A stretch of 64,000 nucleotides of DNA from Octopus vulgaris (taxonomy: Eukaryota): assembly GCA_951406725.2 (NCBI GenBank), contig OX597825.1, positions 48,174,001 through 48,238,000 on the forward strand. Reading direction: 5' to 3'. The position numbers and the translations under genes are program-made. Position 1 is the stretch's first letter. Every line of letters begins with the position of its first letter. The notes beneath the pieces are model-generated. The model was not told where the DNA came from and did no database searches. It saw only the letters and a program-made list of their open reading frames with translations. Positions 19,655 to 61,516 of this stretch are shown in pieces.

Positions 19655-20995
19655 CTCTATATATATAAAACTGAGAATGTGTGTCTGTCTGTCTGTGTAT
19701 TTCCCTAAAACTTGAGGACTACACAACCAATTTCATTCAAATTTTACACATGCCTTACTTGGGGTCCGGGGAGTGTCATCGGCAAAAAAATGTTCAACTT
19801 CTTGCCTAGGGCGAGCCCATAGCAATATCATATCTTCTCCACTATTTCAGTATTACGTGTTAAAAGTGAAACAAAAACATACCGTTTACCACAGCTTTTA
19901 CATTAGATTATCTGCTAATTAGCTAGCATTAAGTATCTATATGAAGTTTGGCTGTATGTAATGTCTGTTTTCTCGAACAGCCGCTTCTACTGAGTACTGC
20001 TGTTGGTTTATTTCTTATACATAAAGGACTATAGCTTCAACTGCGAACTGCTTTTTGATTCACCATAAGGTTTGTTGCTATTATTATTACTGTTTAACTA
20101 TTGTTATCACATTTGTTGGTTCCTCGTAAGGGAAACGTTGTTGTGTTGCATTTGTTAAATAATTGTAAACTGTAACCCTCCCTCTTTGGGAGAAGGAGCT
20201 TTGGTTATTATTTAAAAATTGAATTGTGTTCCTGTTTGGGGAAATTGACAATATTTTCACCGTTTACACGGAAGCATTTTTGTTAGAATGCCTTCGATAG
20301 AAGAAAGTCCAAAAATGAATTTCGCTGCAGCCGTCGGCGGGCGCGAACTCATTAAAATTAAAATGGAAGAAATACAAACCTATTTCGGATTGATCACCGA
20401 CAAAGACGGTGACTCTAGGATAATACCACCAAACGAAATAAAAAATTAAATTAAAGAAAAGACTATTGTCTATAAAGTATACAATGTAGAGTAAAAAAAA
20501 AGATTTGAACACCTGGAGGAAAGCACCATCGAAAAGTATCTTGGTGCGACTATGAAAGATATCTAACCAGAGGCGGTAAATTCGCCACAATAGAAGCAAA
20601 GTTCGAGTCAACGGAGCGTGCAAGGAAGTACTCGACTCGAACCTTGCAAAGTGGAAATATTTTATTTTTACCTTTATATCTGGGACGTAGGACGTGCTGA
20701 ATAAAAATTTAAAATGTCACCCACAGAAGTAGAGGTAGGCTGGATTGTAGCCACACTTCTATACAAGAGGGGGGACAAAATACAATTGATCTAAATTGCA
20801 AGAGACGGGCCTACAATTCCAGTCTGTTATATATTTTGAGTATTCTTATCACTAGCGATATCAAGATATAACTTTGTATTTTGTATTTTATGTGTAGATG
20901 TATATATATAGATGTACGTGTAATATGTACACATATATATACACATATGTACATGCACTAGCACTATGGCCCAGTAACGACGGGTCATAATGCTA

Positions 20996-20996: not shown

Positions 20997-21033
<37 letters not shown>

Positions 21034-21173
21034 GACGGGCTTCTTTCAGCTTCCGTCTACCGAATTCACTAACAAGGCTTCGGTCTGCCCGAGGTTATAG
21101 TAGAAGATAATTGCCCAAGGTGCCACGCAATGGGATTGAACCCGGAACTATGTGGTTGGGAAGCAAGCTTCTT

Positions 21174-22827
21174 TATTTCATTAAATTGGCCATATAGGCC
21201 TTACAGAGAGAAGCTTGTGGGCTGGACATGGACAAGATGAGATGAAATGAAACAAAATGATACGGATGAGAGGGATGAAACCTCACACTGCTCTGTCAGT
21301 GGCACACTTCCCACTGACGGAGCCCTATCCGCAGGTGGCACACATCCCACCTGCGGCTCCGTCGGCGGCCCAGGAACATCCGCCGACCGTCCTCTGCTCC
21401 TCTTTTTCCTGTTTCTTTTTGAGGCTGCGGGAGCAGGGGGCTGCGTCGACAGACGCGAGGGGTCGCTACCCTCCTCCACCGCCTGAACATTTTTGGTGAG
21501 CAGTTGCTCACCTTTCTTTTTCTTTTCGTGGAGGCAACTTCCTCCACGACTTCCACCGTCTCCCCCTCCAATGAGGGGGCGGCGGGCACCTTCTCTTTCT
21601 CATGCTCCAGGGCCCCACCACGGCCCCCTGGACAGTTCTTTTTGATATGGCCAGGCTCCAGGCACAGGTGACACTTGGGGGGGGGGGGCGTCCCTCAAGT
21701 ATCACCAGGTACCTGTACCCGGCCATTTTTAGGAAATCCGGAAACATCATGTCTCCCACGGCCACCGGGGTCCACAGGGTTAAAGTTGCCTTTGACCCCT
21801 CCCAGTCGACCGCGGGAGTAATCTTCACACTCAATAGCCTGGGCCCGCTATCCCCCAGGCCTCGCCGGATGGTCTTCTCGATCCATCCCGCCTCCGTTCC
21901 CGGGGCAGTCCGCACACCCTGGCTCTTCTTATCTTCCTCCCACAATAAGTGTGGAGGAACAAAATTTCTTCTCCCTCAAGGGGCTCGCTGGCAAATCTGC
22001 CAGCTTCCTCAGAGGTACCAAACAGCAACCACACCGTTGCAAATTTGGTCCCCCGTGAAATAAATTTTATAGTTGGCAGGTAGTCTGCCAACTCTTTCTC
22101 TATTACGCTCTTGTCGAAGAGGGCGATGGCACCACACGACCTAGAATAGATCCGTAGTACCACCGTCCTCTTCTCAAGATCTTTAATCCACTGTTTGGGT
22201 CGGACCACCTCCCACTCCAAAGCAGCGGCACCGTTTATTTTTCCCATGTGCAAAAGAAAGTCTTAAGAGTTCCAAAAAAAAGTCCAAAGGTCAATAGAAT
22301 GTAAAAAAGGTTCACAAAAAGTTAAAAAATACAAAAAACAAAAAAAAAAAAGTAAGTCCAAAAATTAATTAGCTGTTCAAAAGGAAAGAAAAAATCAGAA
22401 AGGATAAACGGAAAATAAAAAAACAGTTCACACAGCAAAAATCCAATTGGTCAACAGGTAATCCCGGCCTAATGTGGATAGGTTCCTTGGCATAAATCTT
22501 TTTTGTTGTCCGGTAATTCAAACACAATACAGCCAACAACAGCAACAGGTTCTATTCGGGCGAGGATACGCCCCACCAAAAATGAATCCAATAAATTCTC
22601 AATACACAAAAACAGCGGCCGCCGAGAGCAGGCGAAATTGTCCCAGAGCTGGGCGCAATTTACTGAAAAAGTAATTCGCACGCAATAAATTATGCCCAAC
22701 TCACAACACACAAAATCACCTACCTCGACAACCTTCTCTGTTTTTGTTCTTTTTTCTTTTTAGGACGGAGCTGAAAGCTCACCTCCTCACCGTTCAGTGT
22801 CAAGAAGTCAACTCCACGACCGGAACC
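21174..22827 (-). mobile_element. ORF1-only L1/Tx1 derivative (HAL1-like), TSD-flanked
   Basis: Exact 15-bp TSD ggaagcaagcttctt (21159-21173, 22828-22842); 5'UTR; frameshifted ORF1 from ~22247 with CCHC knuckle CHLCLEPGHIKKNC; short 3' tail with GGCC hairpin; no ORF2 remnant seen. Confidence 0.82.
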
Positions 22828-22874
22828 GGAAGCAAGCTTCTTACCACACAGCCACTCCTGCACTTATACATATA

Positions 22875-34240: not shown

Positions 34241-34879
34241 TAATAACAATGCTCTTTATTATCCCCAAACGGCCCTTGGTGATACAATAAAACTATGTAG
34301 ATAGAAGTATAAATCCATGTACAGTGGAGACACTGAAATGTTAAACAACTGAAAAAAAAATGTTCTTGTTTTTCTCTTGCTATTTAATTATTATATGTAC
34401 TCCTATGGTTATTAGAGCATCATATGATTATGGTTATAGTAACACAGATAAATATTTTACTTTGTATTAGTGTCATAGAACATATGGAGTATAAAGAGTT
34501 ATAAATCGGCTCTTAAACAGACGCATTAGTAACACGCGCGCGCATACCTACCTACCTACCTACATACATCCATCCATACATACATACATACATACCCGCC
34601 TGCCTGTCTATCTGCCTACATACTTACATACACACATACATACATATACATATACATACATAATATACATACATATATGTATGCTCTGAGGTTTCGCCTC
34701 CTTGATTTTACATCAGCAAGGTCATGGATCGAATTTTCAGAACTGTTAATGTTCTTAGAAGAAAATTACTTGCTAACATCCTGCATAGCTTTTGTTAGTC
34801 TTTGTAATGTAGTGACCCCTGGCGGCTACGACGGCAAGCAAAACGGAAAAGGGATTTAACGAGAGTAATCTCCCTCGAG

Positions 34880-34960
34880 CTTCTAGAATGTTCGAGACCT
34901 TTCTGGAAGCTTTAGGTGTACGTGGAAGTCAAGGACTTCCGCTCCATCCCTTACATAAAG
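34880..34960 (+). promoter_or_regulatory. Heat-shock element array plus TATA-like box (probably of LTR origin)
   Basis: TTCtaGAAtgTTCgaGACctTTCtgGAA is six alternating nGAAn units with one mismatch; tacataaa at 34952. Confidence 0.55.
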
Positions 34961-34997
34961 GAAGAAATTCTAAATTCGCGCCACTCCATGTCTGTCT

Positions 34998-37900
34998 TTA
35001 AAATGCCTCGGGCTAGTATTAAAGGAGATTAAATACCTGGCAAGAGGTACCAGTTTCGCAACAATTGAAGCACGGTTCGAGTCGGCTGAGAAGGCCAGGG
35101 ATTTCTCGACTCGAACCGTACAAAGTGGGAATATTCTGCTTCTTCCCTTGTATTTGGGCAGAAGAATCTCCCGGATCAAAATAAAAAAATATACCGCCAG
35201 AGGTAGAGGTGGTGTGGATAGCAGCTACCATTCTCTTCGGTCGGGAGGAGAAGATAAAAATCATCCAAATCACCAGAGACGCCCGCAAAACTGGCGGGGT
35301 CAAACTCTGGAGATCCTGGCCCAGACTTCTTTTGAGGATTTAGAAACCTCCCTGAGACCATACAGATCGGGGAGGAGACGGTCTTGACGGTCAACGTAGA
35401 GGGAAGAAAACCATGTTGCTTTAAATGTGATAAGAAGGGACATATAAGACAGAAATGCCCGCAAAATAAGGATAAAGAAAAGGAGAACAAAGATGAGGCG
35501 ACGCCCCCAGCCAAGGAGGCTGTTACCCAGAGGGCGACAGCCTCCACCAATATAAAAGAAGCACCGATGGCCCCAGCCATGGAGGCTGTTACACAGAGGG
35601 CGTCGGCAAACACCAAAAATTTAACACCAGCGCCCACAACCAAGGAGGCTATTACTCAAAAGGCGTCCGTGAACAACAAGGTATCGCCCCCCCCCCAGCC
35701 ATGGAGGCTGTTACAAGAGTGGAGGCCGCGGTCACCAACATAGAGGAGGAGACGACCCCCGCCAAGGAGGCGGTTACACACAGAGTGTCCACCTCCTCTA
35801 ATACTAACACTAATACAAATGCAGTGGAGACCACAGCCAGGGAGGCTGTGGTAAAGAAGGTGGCCGAGAGTAAAATTATAGAGGAGGAGACGCCCCCCGC
35901 CAGGGAGGAGGTTACACAGAGGGCGTCTACCTCCTCTAAAGCAAATGTAGCGGCACCCCTAGCCATGGAGGCTACTATCAAGAGGGCGTCCGCTAAGGAC
36001 AAAACAGCCGTGATACCGTCGGAATAGGAAATGGAATTCCAGATGGTGTCATGCAAACGTCCAAAAAATGGAGTCGTCCACAAAAAATCAAGAAGCGGCC
36101 CCCAAAAAGTGGTTAGAAAAATTGAGAAAACACAATCGTCCCACACGAAGAGTAAAATGTGTTTAAGATGGGTACAATTACCAAATAAGGAAGAAATCGT
36201 GGTAGCGGCATATAAAAAACATAATAAATACCTGGTTGGAGTTATTAAGCCGCACCATAAAGCACATGTATATAATAACACAATTAATAATAGTGTAAAA
36301 ATTAATAATATAGTAAAACTGCTAAGAGAACTCCTTTTTCGAGTTAAAATATAGATAAAGAAAAGACATTGTGGAAGTGAGGGATCGTCCTAAATTATTC
36401 AACCCACTGATTAAGCCATTTTTAGATGAGAAGAAAGAGGAGGAGGGGATTGTCCCACTAGTACTAAGGTCTATCCCACTCGAAAAAACGAAATGAGGAA
36501 GGTAAGCTCTGAATTTTTCTTTCTTTTTCTCTTTGATATGACATGGCTGCACTACTTATTGGCTGTTTGAATGTGCGTGGCTTAGGGTTGAAGAGGAAGC
36601 AGGCTTGTTTTCTCGACGACCTCATAACACACAGAATAGATGTGATGGTTGCTACAGAGACCAAGTTGGACAAGCTGCATGCTTTCTCACCTCTCCTGAA
36701 CGGCTATGAGAAAATCGTGTCTCCTAGTCAAACCGGGGGGGGGTGTAGTTTTGCTCCGGAAAAACTTGGATCTGCAGACACGTACAATCTTCGTGGACCC
36801 AGAAGGCGAGTCGGTCGTTCTGGATCTGACATACAGTGGTAAGGCCTTCAGGTTGGTTGGTTTTATGCGCCTAACGCGACAGGCAAACGGAATGAGCTCT
36901 ACCAACGTCTCGAGAATTTCTCGGTGACGTCGAAAACACTAGTTGTGTTAGGTGACTTTAATGCTATTCTTGATGCACGCCTGGATAGCGTTGGCTCGAA
37001 CGATAGGAAATGTGACTCACGCCTCGTCGATCTGCTGAAGCGATTTAAGGTTGGCAGATCGATTCAGGCTTGATAATCCGAGCGTGCCAATGTGGACGTA
37101 GACTAATTACGACGGATCAATTAGGTTTATATAGATAGCATCATAGTTAATGCGATAGATAAGTCTAGTGTAAGTTGTCCACAATTTGCCTATGTACCCT
37201 ACACGGATCACAAATTAGTGACGTGTAGGTTGTATATAGATAAGGTTCATAGACAGGGATCTGGCTATTGGAATTTGAACAAATCCTTATTGGATTACAA
37301 AGCTTACCGTAGCCAGATTAAGGTGTTAGTTATGAGGGCACTAACTGGCACTGTATTTAATAACCGATGGTGGGGTACCCTCAAAAGAGCCATTCGCACT
37401 GAATCATTTAGATTTATTAAACAGTTACGTTTAGAGAAGAAGAGAGTAGAAAGGGACTTAGTTAAGGCATTAGAAGAGGCGCTAAGGGTGGGCTCTGCAT
37501 CCCAAGTTTTGGCGGCGAGATCGGCCTTTGACCGACGCCTCAATACCAAACATGAAAGATGCAGAGTTCGGGCTAATGTACGTGCAGTGGGTCGCTAGGT
37601 ATCAACGTTTCCGGGCGGGCTCGCTCGGTAGAAATCCAACGTGCCGTGGATGCTACGATTAGGTCTGTGACAAATGAACATGGACAGGAAATCGAAGGAC
37701 AAGGTCTTTCACGAGCACTTTCCTGCGTTGTTCAGGGGTGGGGAACGTGGGACCATGAGGATGCCCTCAGGATTTCCTGGCCGGCGGCCCGTGTCTTTCG
37801 GCGCGAGATGTTGAGCGCTGTGAAGGGCCGATGACGGCTGAGGCGATCACAAAGGTACTTTCCGAGTGCCCCGGGGACAAGTTGCCGAGACTGGATGGTC

Positions 37901-39833
37901 TACCTTACGAATTTTATAAATATATGCCAGATTTGTTCGAGAACATACTGGCCAGTGTTTATGCGAATTGGTAGCAGAATGGAAGAATTCCCAAATATGT
38001 GAGCCGAGGAGTGGTGACACTGATCAGAATGGACCCGAGCAAGGGAGATAACGTAAGTAATTTTAGGCTCATAACTCTGTTAAACACAGAGCTAAAGATT
38101 TTGGATAAGGTGTTAGCGAGGAGAATGAGGATTGTCGTTGGAGGCCTGGTGGGAGAGGCGCAAACATGCGCCATCCCAGGAAGGACGATGTTCGATAACC
38201 TTCATCTCATTCGCTACACCATAGAGAGGGTTGGAAAAAATTCTGGAAAAGGTGGGGTACTGGTGAATTTGGATCAGTCTAAGGCATTCGATAGGGTTGA
38301 CCATCGATATCTGGCAACGGTTATCCGGGCGGTCGGACAGGGCCCGACCTTCCGAGCCTGGATCGAAGCTTTGTATTGTAACATCGAATCTGCTGTCCGG
38401 GTGAATGGGTTCTTAACGAGCCGTTTGCGATTGAACGTTCGGTTCGTCAGGACTGTCCCTTGTACTCGCCCCTATATGTACTGGCTCTTGAGCCGCTACT
38501 GTGGAGATTGGGAACGTTGCTATGGAGGGCCGAGGTTACACAGGTGTTTATAGCATCTGTGATAACCTAACGCCTAACCGTCGTCCCTTGCCCCAGTTTG
38601 TGGTTGAACAGGTTGGAAAGGATCCTTTTCGCTTTTTATGGAAGGGGAAACCACCGCTTGTGAGGCACTCCATTTGCTGTTAGAAACCGACTTGGCTGAT
38701 GATGCACAAGTATGCGTTGAGGCTGAGGCACCTTCGGCGCTACCTGGATGGTGAGCAGGTGTGGTTACCGCATGTCAAACAGCTTTTTCTTCAATTGGAG
38801 CCCCTTAGGGACTTAGGCACATGAATCAGGCGGAGACCTAAAATGGGGGAATGGCAGAGAGAATGCAGACAAGCACTCAACCTGTTCTCTCGGGCGAGCA
38901 ATGCCGCAGTGAGGTTACGACTGTGGATTTCTATAGAGGGATAGTAGAGTTTAAGTCTGATGACGTCCTGGGGGAGGGCTCTGGGCTTGGATATCGAACA
39001 ACTAGCCAGCCTGTTCGAAGGGACATTCGGGCCGAGGTATCTGGATAATTTCCAAAAATCCTTGGCTTGGTTGTGCTGTCGTTCGGCCTTACCAGTTCTA
39101 GAGAGGTTATCAAGGCACGGTTACAACCCTACCCCCGACATGTCCGAGGTGCGGGCGCGGCAGTGAAACTGTCGCGCACGCCTTCGAACATTGTGTGGAA
39201 TTGAGGGACTGGTGACCCATGTGAAACAACTGATGTCCGATGGGGGAAGAGTACGGCTCTCGACTGAGTCCATAGTTAAGACTGTACCGCCTCCCTCCTT
39301 TAACAAGGAAAGGAAAGCTGCTTTCTTCTGCGTAGTTGCCATAATGAAAGAGACAGTGTGGAGGATGCGCGCAAAAGGAATTGAGACAGGTCACTTCTCT
39401 CCGGACAGGGCTTGTAAAGTTGGCTCAACTTCCACCTCGTGAGGAAAATTCGTCTGGAGAGGAAGTGCCTGCCCCAAAGTGTATATGAGAAAAGATGGAT
39501 AAGCGTGGTAAGAAAATTGAGAATGAATGGGGCCGTGTTGGTGTAGCTGGTCAAGGGAGAAGAAGGAAGGAAGCGACCCCCCTCCCCAGGGAAGTAAAAC
39601 AAAGGTCTAAAACCGGCGGATTGAAATGGAACCCAGAAAAAAATTTTGTAAAAATTCTTAATTATATATCATTAATTTTTGAACCCATAACGTTTCTGTC
39701 ATTTTAACTCTACATTCGTAATCACAGGCGCATGGACCCCAATACCCTGTAATGCATGTCCGTTGTTTGTCCCCGACCCACCTTTGTGTTTATATATCTT
39801 TGTCAGGCCTTTATAGGCAAATAAAGAAATCAT
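34998..39833 (+). mobile_element. L1/Tx1-clade LINE, 5'-truncated in ORF1, decayed ORF2
   Basis: 13-bp TSD tccatgtctgtct (34985-34997, 39834-39846); ORF1 CFKCDKKGHIRQKC; ORF2 from 36543 MAALLIGCLNVRG..ETK..GDFN..TDH; RT NFRLITLLNTELK..DQSKAFDRVDH; YADD region deleted; tail ggcctttataggcaaataaagaaat. Confidence 0.93.
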
Positions 39834-58900: not shown

Positions 58901-59617
58901 GTCATGATATTATATTATAGTAAAGAGATAACACTTAACCAATGCAGCAAGCACCAAACACCCCATCTCACTACTTCACTACATCTGACCCCACACCACC
59001 ACACTATGCGTTCTATCAGTACTACCCTATATCCCCTACAATACAGCACCACACACCTAACTCCACCATGCTACACCACTTCTCATCACACTAGACCATA
59101 CCAGTTTCTTTACCCTACACCATATACCACCCCATACCCCCCATCATTCTACACTAGACCCCAGTCCAATTTGCCCAAATTATTCTTTTTTTTTAGTTAC
59201 TAAAGATGTTTTTGTTTTTTTTTACTTATTCTTAAATTTTCAATGGTGGAGACGTTTTTAAACTTCTGAGTTGTAAATTTCATCTTCATATTCTGACTTT
59301 AAAATGTTTAACTGCATCTGACTCCCCTGTCTCCTCATATACTTCAATGTCATTGGTTCAGTATCAGCTGGTATTAGTTTTGTTTGTATCAGCAGCCCTT
59401 AAAGTGTGACCTGTCTAAATGCACAAGTCCTTGCAAACAATTAAACACATAAATATTTATTTTATCGCAAATGTTTTGTTGGTAAATATTCAATGCTAGT
59501 ATTATCTCTCTCTCTCTCTCTATCTCTCTCTGTTTCTTCTTTTAAAAATCTAAAATATTTGGCAGTTTAAAAAAATTTTTTTTTTTTTCCTTTTTATCTT
59601 CAGATTACACAATAAGA

Positions 59618-61319
59618 ATGGGGGAAATGCAGTTTTCTATCTCCAATATCCACTATGAACCACTGAAGTGGACAGGTAGTCCAAACCAGAACTCTCCTCA
59701 TCTGACAATGCAGCCCTCTTATCTAAACTGGGAATCTTACCCAGCTACACAGGAAAGGACCACACCTTATGAGAAACGGTATAACACTCTGGAGAGTGTT
59801 CTCTTGGGCCAAGTTCCTGCCAGTTATTCCCATTTAACTACCTCACCTCACCTATCTTCATCACCATCAAATTCTTCATCTTGCTCTACATCACCCTCTC
59901 CAACAGCATTTTCAGATCGTTCTTTCTCAGCCAGTCCTTGCTACTCTACTGGTCAATCATTTTATCATAAATCTGACGTTTCTCGCTCTTCAGCATCAAG
60001 TCCATCAGGTTACCAATCAGAACCAATGGATTTATCTTGTAAAGGCTTTTCTTCATCTGCATCTTCAATTTGTTCGACAGGAAGTAGGAAATCTATTTGT
60101 AGTGACAGCTCTGGCTATGGAGGAGAGGAGCACCAACTAGAAGATGCTACATTTCCATTAACATATCAATATACACATGACAATGGTAGAACAACGGATC
60201 CTTCACTCCTTTCTTCCTGTGGTACCACATACATGTCAGTGGATCAGCAGGCCATGCAAATGGCAAATTCTTCAATAAATCAACCTCTCAGAAGCAGACA
60301 TTCTCCAATCCAGTTTCTTAGTGATACTTCAATTCAACAGCGACAATCTCCTATCGAAAATCACTTATCAACAATCCCCCCATTACATCAGCAGCAGCAG
60401 CAGAAACAACATCAACTATTAGATGTACCACACCATAGTTTACAACAACAGTCTTCAAGTGTCCAGAGCAGTGACATGTCTATGGAAATTCAACACAGCC
60501 TTGCTATGCAGGGTCAGTCTTCACATAAGAAAGACTCATGTAATAACTCACCGAGCAGGCACTGCATCTCTCCAAGATTAGTATTACATCATAATTCATT
60601 GACTGGCCACCAAGATGAGCATCGGTCACCTTGGCAATCTACTTCCCAGCCTCAACTATCCCAGCAGTCTTTGCAGAATAGTGATTCTTATCAAGCTGGT
60701 ATTGATAGCCGTCCATCTCCACCGCTCCAGAACCAATCTTCAACCCAATCAAAAAATGGACATTCACTCTTGCGAGATCTTCTCAGTTGTGGTCGAAATG
60801 ATTCCAAACAAAATAAAATGTCATTATCGTCCTCATCAGACTTTTCTTCCATTTCTTCATCAAATTCTTCCTCAAATGATGACACTATGTCACAAGAAAA
60901 AGAAGCTAAAATAGAATATGATGGTTCGAAAGATTACTTATTGTCTAGCACAGCTCGTGTGACCCTGGCCAAAAAAAACCTTCTGCCAATCAGCGCCCGT
61001 GTCACTGAATGGCTTTACAAAATGGTCAAGTTTGCTAAAGAAATTCCTCAATTTATGAAGCTTCCCAACAACGACCGCCTAACGCTCATCTTGAACTCAT
61101 GGACTCGTATGCTGTTAATGCATATGGCTGAGAATAACTTCCAGTTTGCTGTCACGCCTCTTCCATCATCTCCAGCCCGTGACCACGAGGTTCCAGCGTC
61201 TGATGAACCAACCATGAAGTCTGTTGAAAGTATACAGAGCATCATACGCAAATGTCAGTGTATGAACTTGGATAGTTCTGAATACAAATACTTAAGAATG
61301 TTGGTGCTTTTCAATGCTG
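59618..61319 (+). CDS. NR0B: NR0B (DAX1/SHP-like) orphan nuclear receptor without DNA-binding domain, first coding exon (3' partial)
   Basis: 567-codon uninterrupted frame; acceptor polyT-cag at 59603, donor G|GTTAGT at 61319/61320; LBD signature VKFAKEIPQFMKLPNNDRLTLILNSW and PTMKSVESIQ..KC..EYKYLRMLVLFNA like DAX1/SHP; no C4 zinc fingers; LxxLL motif. Confidence 0.9.
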
Positions 61320-61516
61320 GTTAGTACCATTTACTTTTAAATAGCTGTGTGCATGTACACTTAGGTGCATCTATACTTGAATGCATGTGTTTGTCTAAGG
61401 ATGCATGTGTGTGTTCTCAGGCAATACTCTCAATGAGAAACAAACTAGGCCGTATCTGTGTATATGCTCTCTTTCTCTCTCTCTCATGTGTATATATATA
61501 CACACACACACACACA

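Follow-up and report, generated by a model that had tools for sequence, protein, structure and literature searches.

The minus strand of a 64,000-nucleotide stretch of the Octopus vulgaris genome (hereafter the window) holds an insert in which an ORF1 leads into a short 3′ tail, with no ORF2 in the element. Such a structure raises the question of whether the element was retrotransposed as an ORF1-only unit, as the initial annotation of the locus proposed by comparison with the HAL1 elements of mammals, or is the remainder of an ordinary LINE. The analysis described here makes it highly probable that the insert is a dead, deleted copy of an old ORF1-only family occupying a fixed position in a SINE. 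An autonomous LINE with the same insertion site likely supplies, in trans, the endonuclease and reverse transcriptase by which the family is copied.

The window copy and its private deletion

The features of the window copy are collected in Table 1. The insert and both exact copies of the 15-bp repeat around it are present as first described, the true target duplication being probably shorter than 15 bp, and the flanks rebuild a single SINE in the same orientation as the element. The 5′ UTR, the CCHC knuckle (with a match under the Pfam curated cut-off), the short 3′ tail with its terminal hairpin and the lack of ORF2 were likewise confirmed. ORF1 starts with an ATG at 22247 and is broken by indels at about 21897, 21688, 21579 and 21491, and an RRM-like region is predicted in the remnant from features only. 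A repeat finder run on the whole window was swamped by microsatellites. Elsewhere in the window, a 592-aa stop-free frame lies on the plus strand (59546–61324); its end looks by eye like a nuclear-receptor ligand-binding domain, and the frame is presumably a host exon.

Table 1. Features of the window copy, its host SINE and the LINE also present in the window.
Feature	Position	Strand	Remarks
Host SINE 5′ head, A-box-like motif	22843..22863	-	
5′ copy of the 15-bp flanking repeat	22828..22842	-	
ORF1-only retroelement, internally deleted copy of a ~2.0-kb family	21174..22827	-	1654 bp
5′ UTR	22248..22827	-	580 nt
ORF1 remnant (family residues 1–328 of 418)	21280..22247	-	several frame-breaking indels
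CCHC zinc knuckle	21629..21676	-	PF00098 zf-CCHC, E 0.0015, 18.9 bits; Pfam curated cut-off 20.8
Deletion junction private to the window copy	21277..21280	-	loss of about 340 bp, from the ORF1 C-terminus through its stop codon into the 3′ UTR
Remaining 3′ UTR	21174..21277	-	104 nt; 97–99% identity to closest relatives
9-nt tail motif, reverse complement of the target core	21209..21217	-	co-varies with target variant
Terminal hairpin ahead of the AATAAAG end	21188..21200	-	4-bp stem, 5-nt loop; common to the SINE-targeting LINE
3′ copy of the 15-bp flanking repeat, target site in the SINE	21159..21173	-	
Host SINE 3′ half, B-box-like motif, then TA repeat	21033..21158	-	
Decayed two-ORF LINE, repeats in ORF1 C-terminus, ends in hairpin + AATAAAG	about 34700-39830	+	not in SINE target

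A DNA search of the genome yielded 2203 candidates, and 12 other near-full-length copies were found among the 40 of these that were scored. One family copy (L002) is 95.6% identical to the window copy over 1642 aligned nt; between 21280 and 21277 it has about 340 bp that the assembled window copy does not, comprising the last ~90 ORF1 codons and part of the 3′ UTR. The same break was observed in 11 of the 29 other fetched loci, where 291–361 extra bases separate a match ending near element position 1548 from one starting at 1551. These bases carry ORF1 on to its stop codon and then into the start of the 3′ UTR; one more of the 29 has a larger deletion. Close relatives are about 2.0 kb long, and the deletion junction matches the 2.8-Gb genome once, in the window itself. 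The 1.65-kb unit, with ORF1 joined directly to the tail, is thus not the form in which the family occurs, since that junction exists in a single copy. Nor is the ORF1 of the window copy apparently full, as had been thought: it covers only residues 1–328 of an intact 418-aa protein, and its "basic tail" is therefore internal. The 340-bp loss would have arisen at or after insertion and would never have spread. The window copy is a dead, damaged member of its family and adds little alone.

An old ORF1-only family under purifying selection

A pattern joining the family tail to the target has 826 exact matches in the genome, against 0 for a control pattern, so at least 826 family 3′ ends are present; the counting patterns contain part of the target, and off-target copies are therefore under-counted. 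In the first 30 of these loci, the SINE 3′ half follows in all 30 (the pattern itself containing the first bases of the target), ORF1 lies within 1.5 kb upstream in 26, and ORF2 was found in none; twenty further loci picked for tail variety likewise gave no ORF2 joined to the family tail. Among all fetched loci, 94 ORF1s are well covered, and 80 have a tail within 2.6 kb, at 1181–1671 nt from the ORF1 start; the ORF2 test covered these 80, the other 14 having no tail at that distance. No ORF2 match was found between ORF1 and tail in any of the 80 elements, a few of which are possibly the same place fetched twice. A length of 1.8–2.3 kb was measured for 28 of 52 two-ended single insertions. An intact member encodes a 418-aa ORF1, and stop-free frames of 416 aa or more were found, by our own count, in about 30 of the best 150 ORF1 matches.

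The family ORF1 is under purifying selection. Between five subfamilies of 4–26 copies each, dN/dS is 0.08–0.23 (10 pairs; 45 copies outside the five clusters and 2 duplicates were left out), with dS up to 2.3. Changes specific to single copies have a pN/pS of 0.36–0.60 rather than 1, indicating that the method is biased downwards; the contrast between both sets of values is consequently smaller than it appears, yet it holds. The family is thus old and large, and the central claim of the initial annotation, that an ORF1-only, non-autonomous, retrotransposed family exists, was borne out by the number of 3′ ends, the intact ORF1s, the dN/dS values and the empty ORF2 search. Of the genome-wide copies that it expected, with duplications, an intact ORF1 and dN/dS below 1, everything was recovered except the length of ~1.65 kb.

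N-terminal regions of 48 ORF1s were placed in a quick tree, from which the ORF1 of the LINE in the window was left out as too broken. All 18 family members sampled fall into a single clade there, set on a long branch (SH-aLRT 100). The single database homologue is an Octopus sinensis protein with 57% identity, and in the Atlas the N-terminal 215 aa of the family ORF1 lie near CCHC and ZCCHC3-type RNA-binding clusters (scores 0.90–0.92). Coverage of the copy L002 by contigs from four runs, presumed to be RNA, is patchy and of low depth, which has no bearing on transcription. DNA sequencing runs under four organism labels contained 39–45% of the sampled words, no RNA run being listed with them. 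Outside the family clade, ORF1s that are not followed by ORF2 were also observed beside other LINE lineages (L139, L140, L141, L143 and the C22 region, L134). ORF1-only elements have probably arisen independently at least once more in this genome.

A landing site shared with an autonomous LINE

The family inserts at one position inside the head of an abundant SINE, the uninterrupted site having 58,747 exact matches in the genome, and stacks there head-to-tail. The flanking SINE halves differ from copy to copy, and 5′-truncated stubs of 71–369 nt sit at the same base. The SINE may be tRNA-derived, judging from A- and B-box-like motifs read by eye; ARAGORN found no tRNA gene in the host SINE, and Rfam gave no tRNA match on the interrupted copy. 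Stacking is seen in a cluster on C7 (G000:C7:13,440,001-13,530,000, L061-L069), where about 85 kb consist nearly entirely of minus-strand LINE and ORF1-only elements; they include a chain in which over ten members of the family follow one another at the rebuilt SINE site, interrupted by other LINEs that have inserted within it. A close relative of another element of the window, a 5′ UTR plus truncated ORF1 of a different lineage lying just past the SINE (19900-20760, plus strand), is found at C7:13.524 Mb. The C7 cluster also repeats the window sequence at about 20815–20845, directly after the 3′ end of another LINE; this sequence is a candidate for an additional target.

An autonomous LINE of 5.45 kb also has both ends in this SINE, and occurs three in tandem at C9. 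Its ORF2 holds Exo_endo_phos, RVT_1 and zf-RVT domains and its ORF1 a CCHC knuckle; we take it to belong to the L1/Tx1 group, and its two-ORF layout is that of the Tx1 clade, of which it is a candidate member. A junction pattern without the family tail has 584 matches in the genome, and 30 of these loci were examined: an ORF2 end was found in 6, ORF1 in 16 and neither in 8, the 6 ORF2-bearing insertions all carrying the LINE-type tail. The tail pattern of this LINE, which did not include the target, has 169 matches; the target then follows in 19 of 20 loci and the SINE 3′ half in 17 of 20. The former value exceeds the criterion for target preference, over 20% of flanks, given in the available text of PMC4494074. 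Internally deleted copies of this LINE, 1.0–2.0 kb long and with both ends at the target, were also observed (L213, L218, L220, L223 and L227).

The 3′ ends link the family to this LINE. When the terminal 53 nt of the window element were aligned to two ends of the SINE-targeting LINE, the scores were 58 and 55, values that none of 500 shuffles attained. The two types of element have the final ~30 nt in common, as well as the motif complementary to the target, their tails differing upstream. Their ORF1s are only 26% identical and are not joined in the quick tree, so the family is probably not a recent deletion product of the SINE-targeting LINE; an AU test does not reject the grouping (p 0.17). 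This LINE, rather than the one in the window, is the likely driver of the family. Other lineages were considered as partners and rejected: for one that is present in a chain at the site, only 1 of 30 loci had the 3′ half of the SINE on the same strand and no more than 1.5 kb away, and none end at the target as the family does. Other LINE lineages, in part tandem, were examined in sixteen more regions and use different targets. Two additional patterns were observed among young LINEs: tandem elements with an ORF2 of 1130–1132 aa and a spacing of about 5.2 kb, in non-SINE targets (C22:14.224-14.245 Mb and C30:10.430-10.451 Mb, L132-L137), and a LINE with a 1132-aa ORF2 that ends at the same position inside the ORF1 of another element in 5 of 5 loci (within L138-L143; L144 differs).

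The boundaries of the insertions carry further traces of the target. A comparison of both flanks across the 52 two-ended single insertions shows agreement of 85% or more at positions 1–9, falling to 54–73% at positions 10–15, and the last ~6 nt of the 15-bp repeat may therefore be an element-encoded copy of the target. The repeat around the window copy would then probably consist of a 9–10-bp true duplication plus ~6 nt of this encoded copy. Several subfamilies have their own copy of the target at their start, and in some copies 14–16 matching bases follow the target variant. At the 3′ end, the terminal hairpin (a 4-bp stem with a 5-nt loop) could be scored in 139 of 160 distinct tails and is fully paired in 119, one stem pair being built into the search. 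Changes on both sides of the stem were seen in 11 and in 7 copies, and it is on these paired changes that the hairpin rests, as the tail folded alone gave a weak alternative structure (-10.2 kcal/mol, with no shuffle control).

The 9-nt tail motif follows the target in a similar way. Of 127 family tails, 104 could be scored, and in all 104 the variable base of the motif matches that of the target, as it does in 33 of 33 LINE tails, copies of one subfamily not being independent in these counts; outside the fetched loci, at least two clear exceptions occur among the listed tail-plus-target matches. Both target variants are used by the SINE-targeting LINE as well as by the family. This co-variation can stem from pairing of RNA with DNA, from pairing within an RNA that has read through into the target, or from a history in common. 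A more far-reaching and rather doubtful idea is that the motif acts as an RNA guide, pairing with the displaced target strand and helping to choose between the two SINE variants, and that the ORF1-only lineage is a long-term helper giving packaging protein for the enzyme of the LINE. If this were true, target choice in an APE-type LINE system would be partly RNA-programmed.

Proposed mechanism, alternatives and known systems

Target-primed reverse transcription is established for non-LTR elements. From the ~2-kb ORF1-only structure, the shared site, the common terminal ~30 nt with their hairpin, the stacking and the selection on ORF1, which are observed, we infer the remaining steps as follows. 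The element would make its own RNA and ORF1 protein, the ORF1 probably being kept for packaging this RNA. The ORF2 protein of the SINE-targeting LINE would bind the shared 3′ end, nick the SINE at the target and reverse-transcribe the RNA there, and the ends of the RNA, which match the target over short stretches, may aid priming and 5′ joining in this way, and rebuild the site. As insertion restores the site, later copies can stack in it and chains grow.

The driver could instead be another autonomous LINE, unseen or extinct, whose ORF1 and whole tail would match those of the family, which would still be ORF1-only and site-specific. The low ORF1 identity to the SINE-targeting LINE, the upstream differences between both tails and the many related LINE lineages in the genome are in keeping with such a source. 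However, ORF2 is joined to the family tail in 0 of 50 loci, all 6 ORF2-bearing insertions among the 30 junctions end in the LINE-type tail, and both target variants are used by LINE and family alike, making another driver unlikely. Very unlikely is the arrangement originally envisaged, in which a 1.65-kb family would be driven by the LINE in the window, one hairpin being common to LINE and SINE in a three-tier system. This LINE does end in a similar short hairpin followed by AATAAAG (score 32 against the element, reached by 1 of 500 shuffles), and its ORF1 is 40% identical over 55 aa. Against this, the 1.65-kb form was found once, the LINE lies outside the SINE target, its tail score falls below the 55 and 58 of the SINE-targeting LINE, and many LINE lineages of this genome that insert elsewhere than in the SINE also end in a hairpin followed by AATAAAG. 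The SINE tier is not supported either: the tail of the SINE at about 31.6 kb of the window, the one other SINE tail tested, aligns with the last 53 nt of the element with a score of 17, which is chance level (212 of 500 shuffles).

Movement of SINE and element together as one composite unit is highly improbable. It would explain why a SINE half lies on either side of almost every copy, but these halves vary between copies, and it is largely refuted by the existence of subfamilies with different 5′ ends, of the short truncated stubs, of a separate LINE at the same base and of duplications belonging to each insertion. As for the reading of the window copy as an ordinary LINE that lost its ORF2 after insertion, without any family behind it, its probability is close to nil. 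A unique junction together with relatives containing ORF2 was to have been its mark, and the junction is indeed unique; however, the relatives have no ORF2 (0 of 80), and the segment lost from the window copy is the C-terminus of ORF1 plus 3′ UTR, present as the 291–361 extra bases in 11 relatives. The evidence thus favours a trans-mobilized ORF1-only family with the SINE-targeting LINE as its driver.

HAL1 of mammals is described in the available text of PMC5753468 as non-autonomous and encoding only ORF1p, two properties that the octopus family shares. The available text of PMC5786205 places HeT-A (Jockey clade) and Ag-Sponge (CR1 clade) beside HAL1 as non-autonomous LINEs in which ORF1 is present, so that ORF1-only derivatives are not mainly mammalian as had been assumed, and reports the proposal that their ORF1p multimerises with the proteins of the partner. 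With ORF1 only, a multi-copy unit with duplications and an ORF1 under selection, the octopus family fits this class in these respects; for the class, Jockey, L1 and CR1 origins are given in that text, and not Tx1. Its target is a dispersed SINE, whereas that in the HeT-A/Ag-Sponge comparison is the chromosome end. Unlike HAL1, the octopus family is found in an invertebrate, holds a CCHC knuckle in its ORF1, keeps strictly to a single SINE position and has a structured 3′ end without a long poly(A). The ORF1 of mammalian L1 is not known to contain a knuckle, and L1 ends in poly(A). The single O. sinensis homologue and the proximity to CCHC/ZCCHC3-type clusters in the Atlas indicate that the family is not a HAL1 derived from mammalian L1. 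HeT-A and TART likewise form head-to-tail arrays of a non-autonomous element with its autonomous partner.

Tx1 families targeting transposons are also known, and the available text of PMC4494074 lists Xenopus Tx1 in Tx1D, crocodilian Tx1-Mar with its SINEU passengers, Tx1-9_AMi and Tx1-8_Crp. The octopus LINE resembles them in preferring a site within another transposon and in having non-autonomous passengers that share the target. However, the Tx1 targets given there are DNA transposons, LTR elements, snRNA genes and microsatellites rather than a SINE, and the passengers described there are non-coding, whereas those in octopus encode a conserved ORF1. L1-Tx1 families are counted in the available text of an O. 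vulgaris repeat paper (PMC13282606), in whose main text, supplements aside, the words ORF1, nested, target and non-autonomous are absent. A literature search found neither an ORF1-only Tx1-group family nor a SINE-targeting LINE in octopus, although Repbase and Dfam may hold both. ORF1-only LINEs and transposon-targeting Tx1 elements are thus each known, and it is their combination that was not found in print.

With the octopus family, non-autonomous LINEs that encode ORF1 alone are extended to a mollusc and its L1/Tx1 group, where such a lineage has lasted to near saturation at synonymous sites with its protein kept. As the SINE serves here as the landing pad, the usual relation between SINE and LINE is reversed. 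A young site-specific APE-type LINE, together with its natural passengers and two target variants, offers a system for the study of target specificity, trans-mobilisation and any part that the RNA tail may play in target choice.
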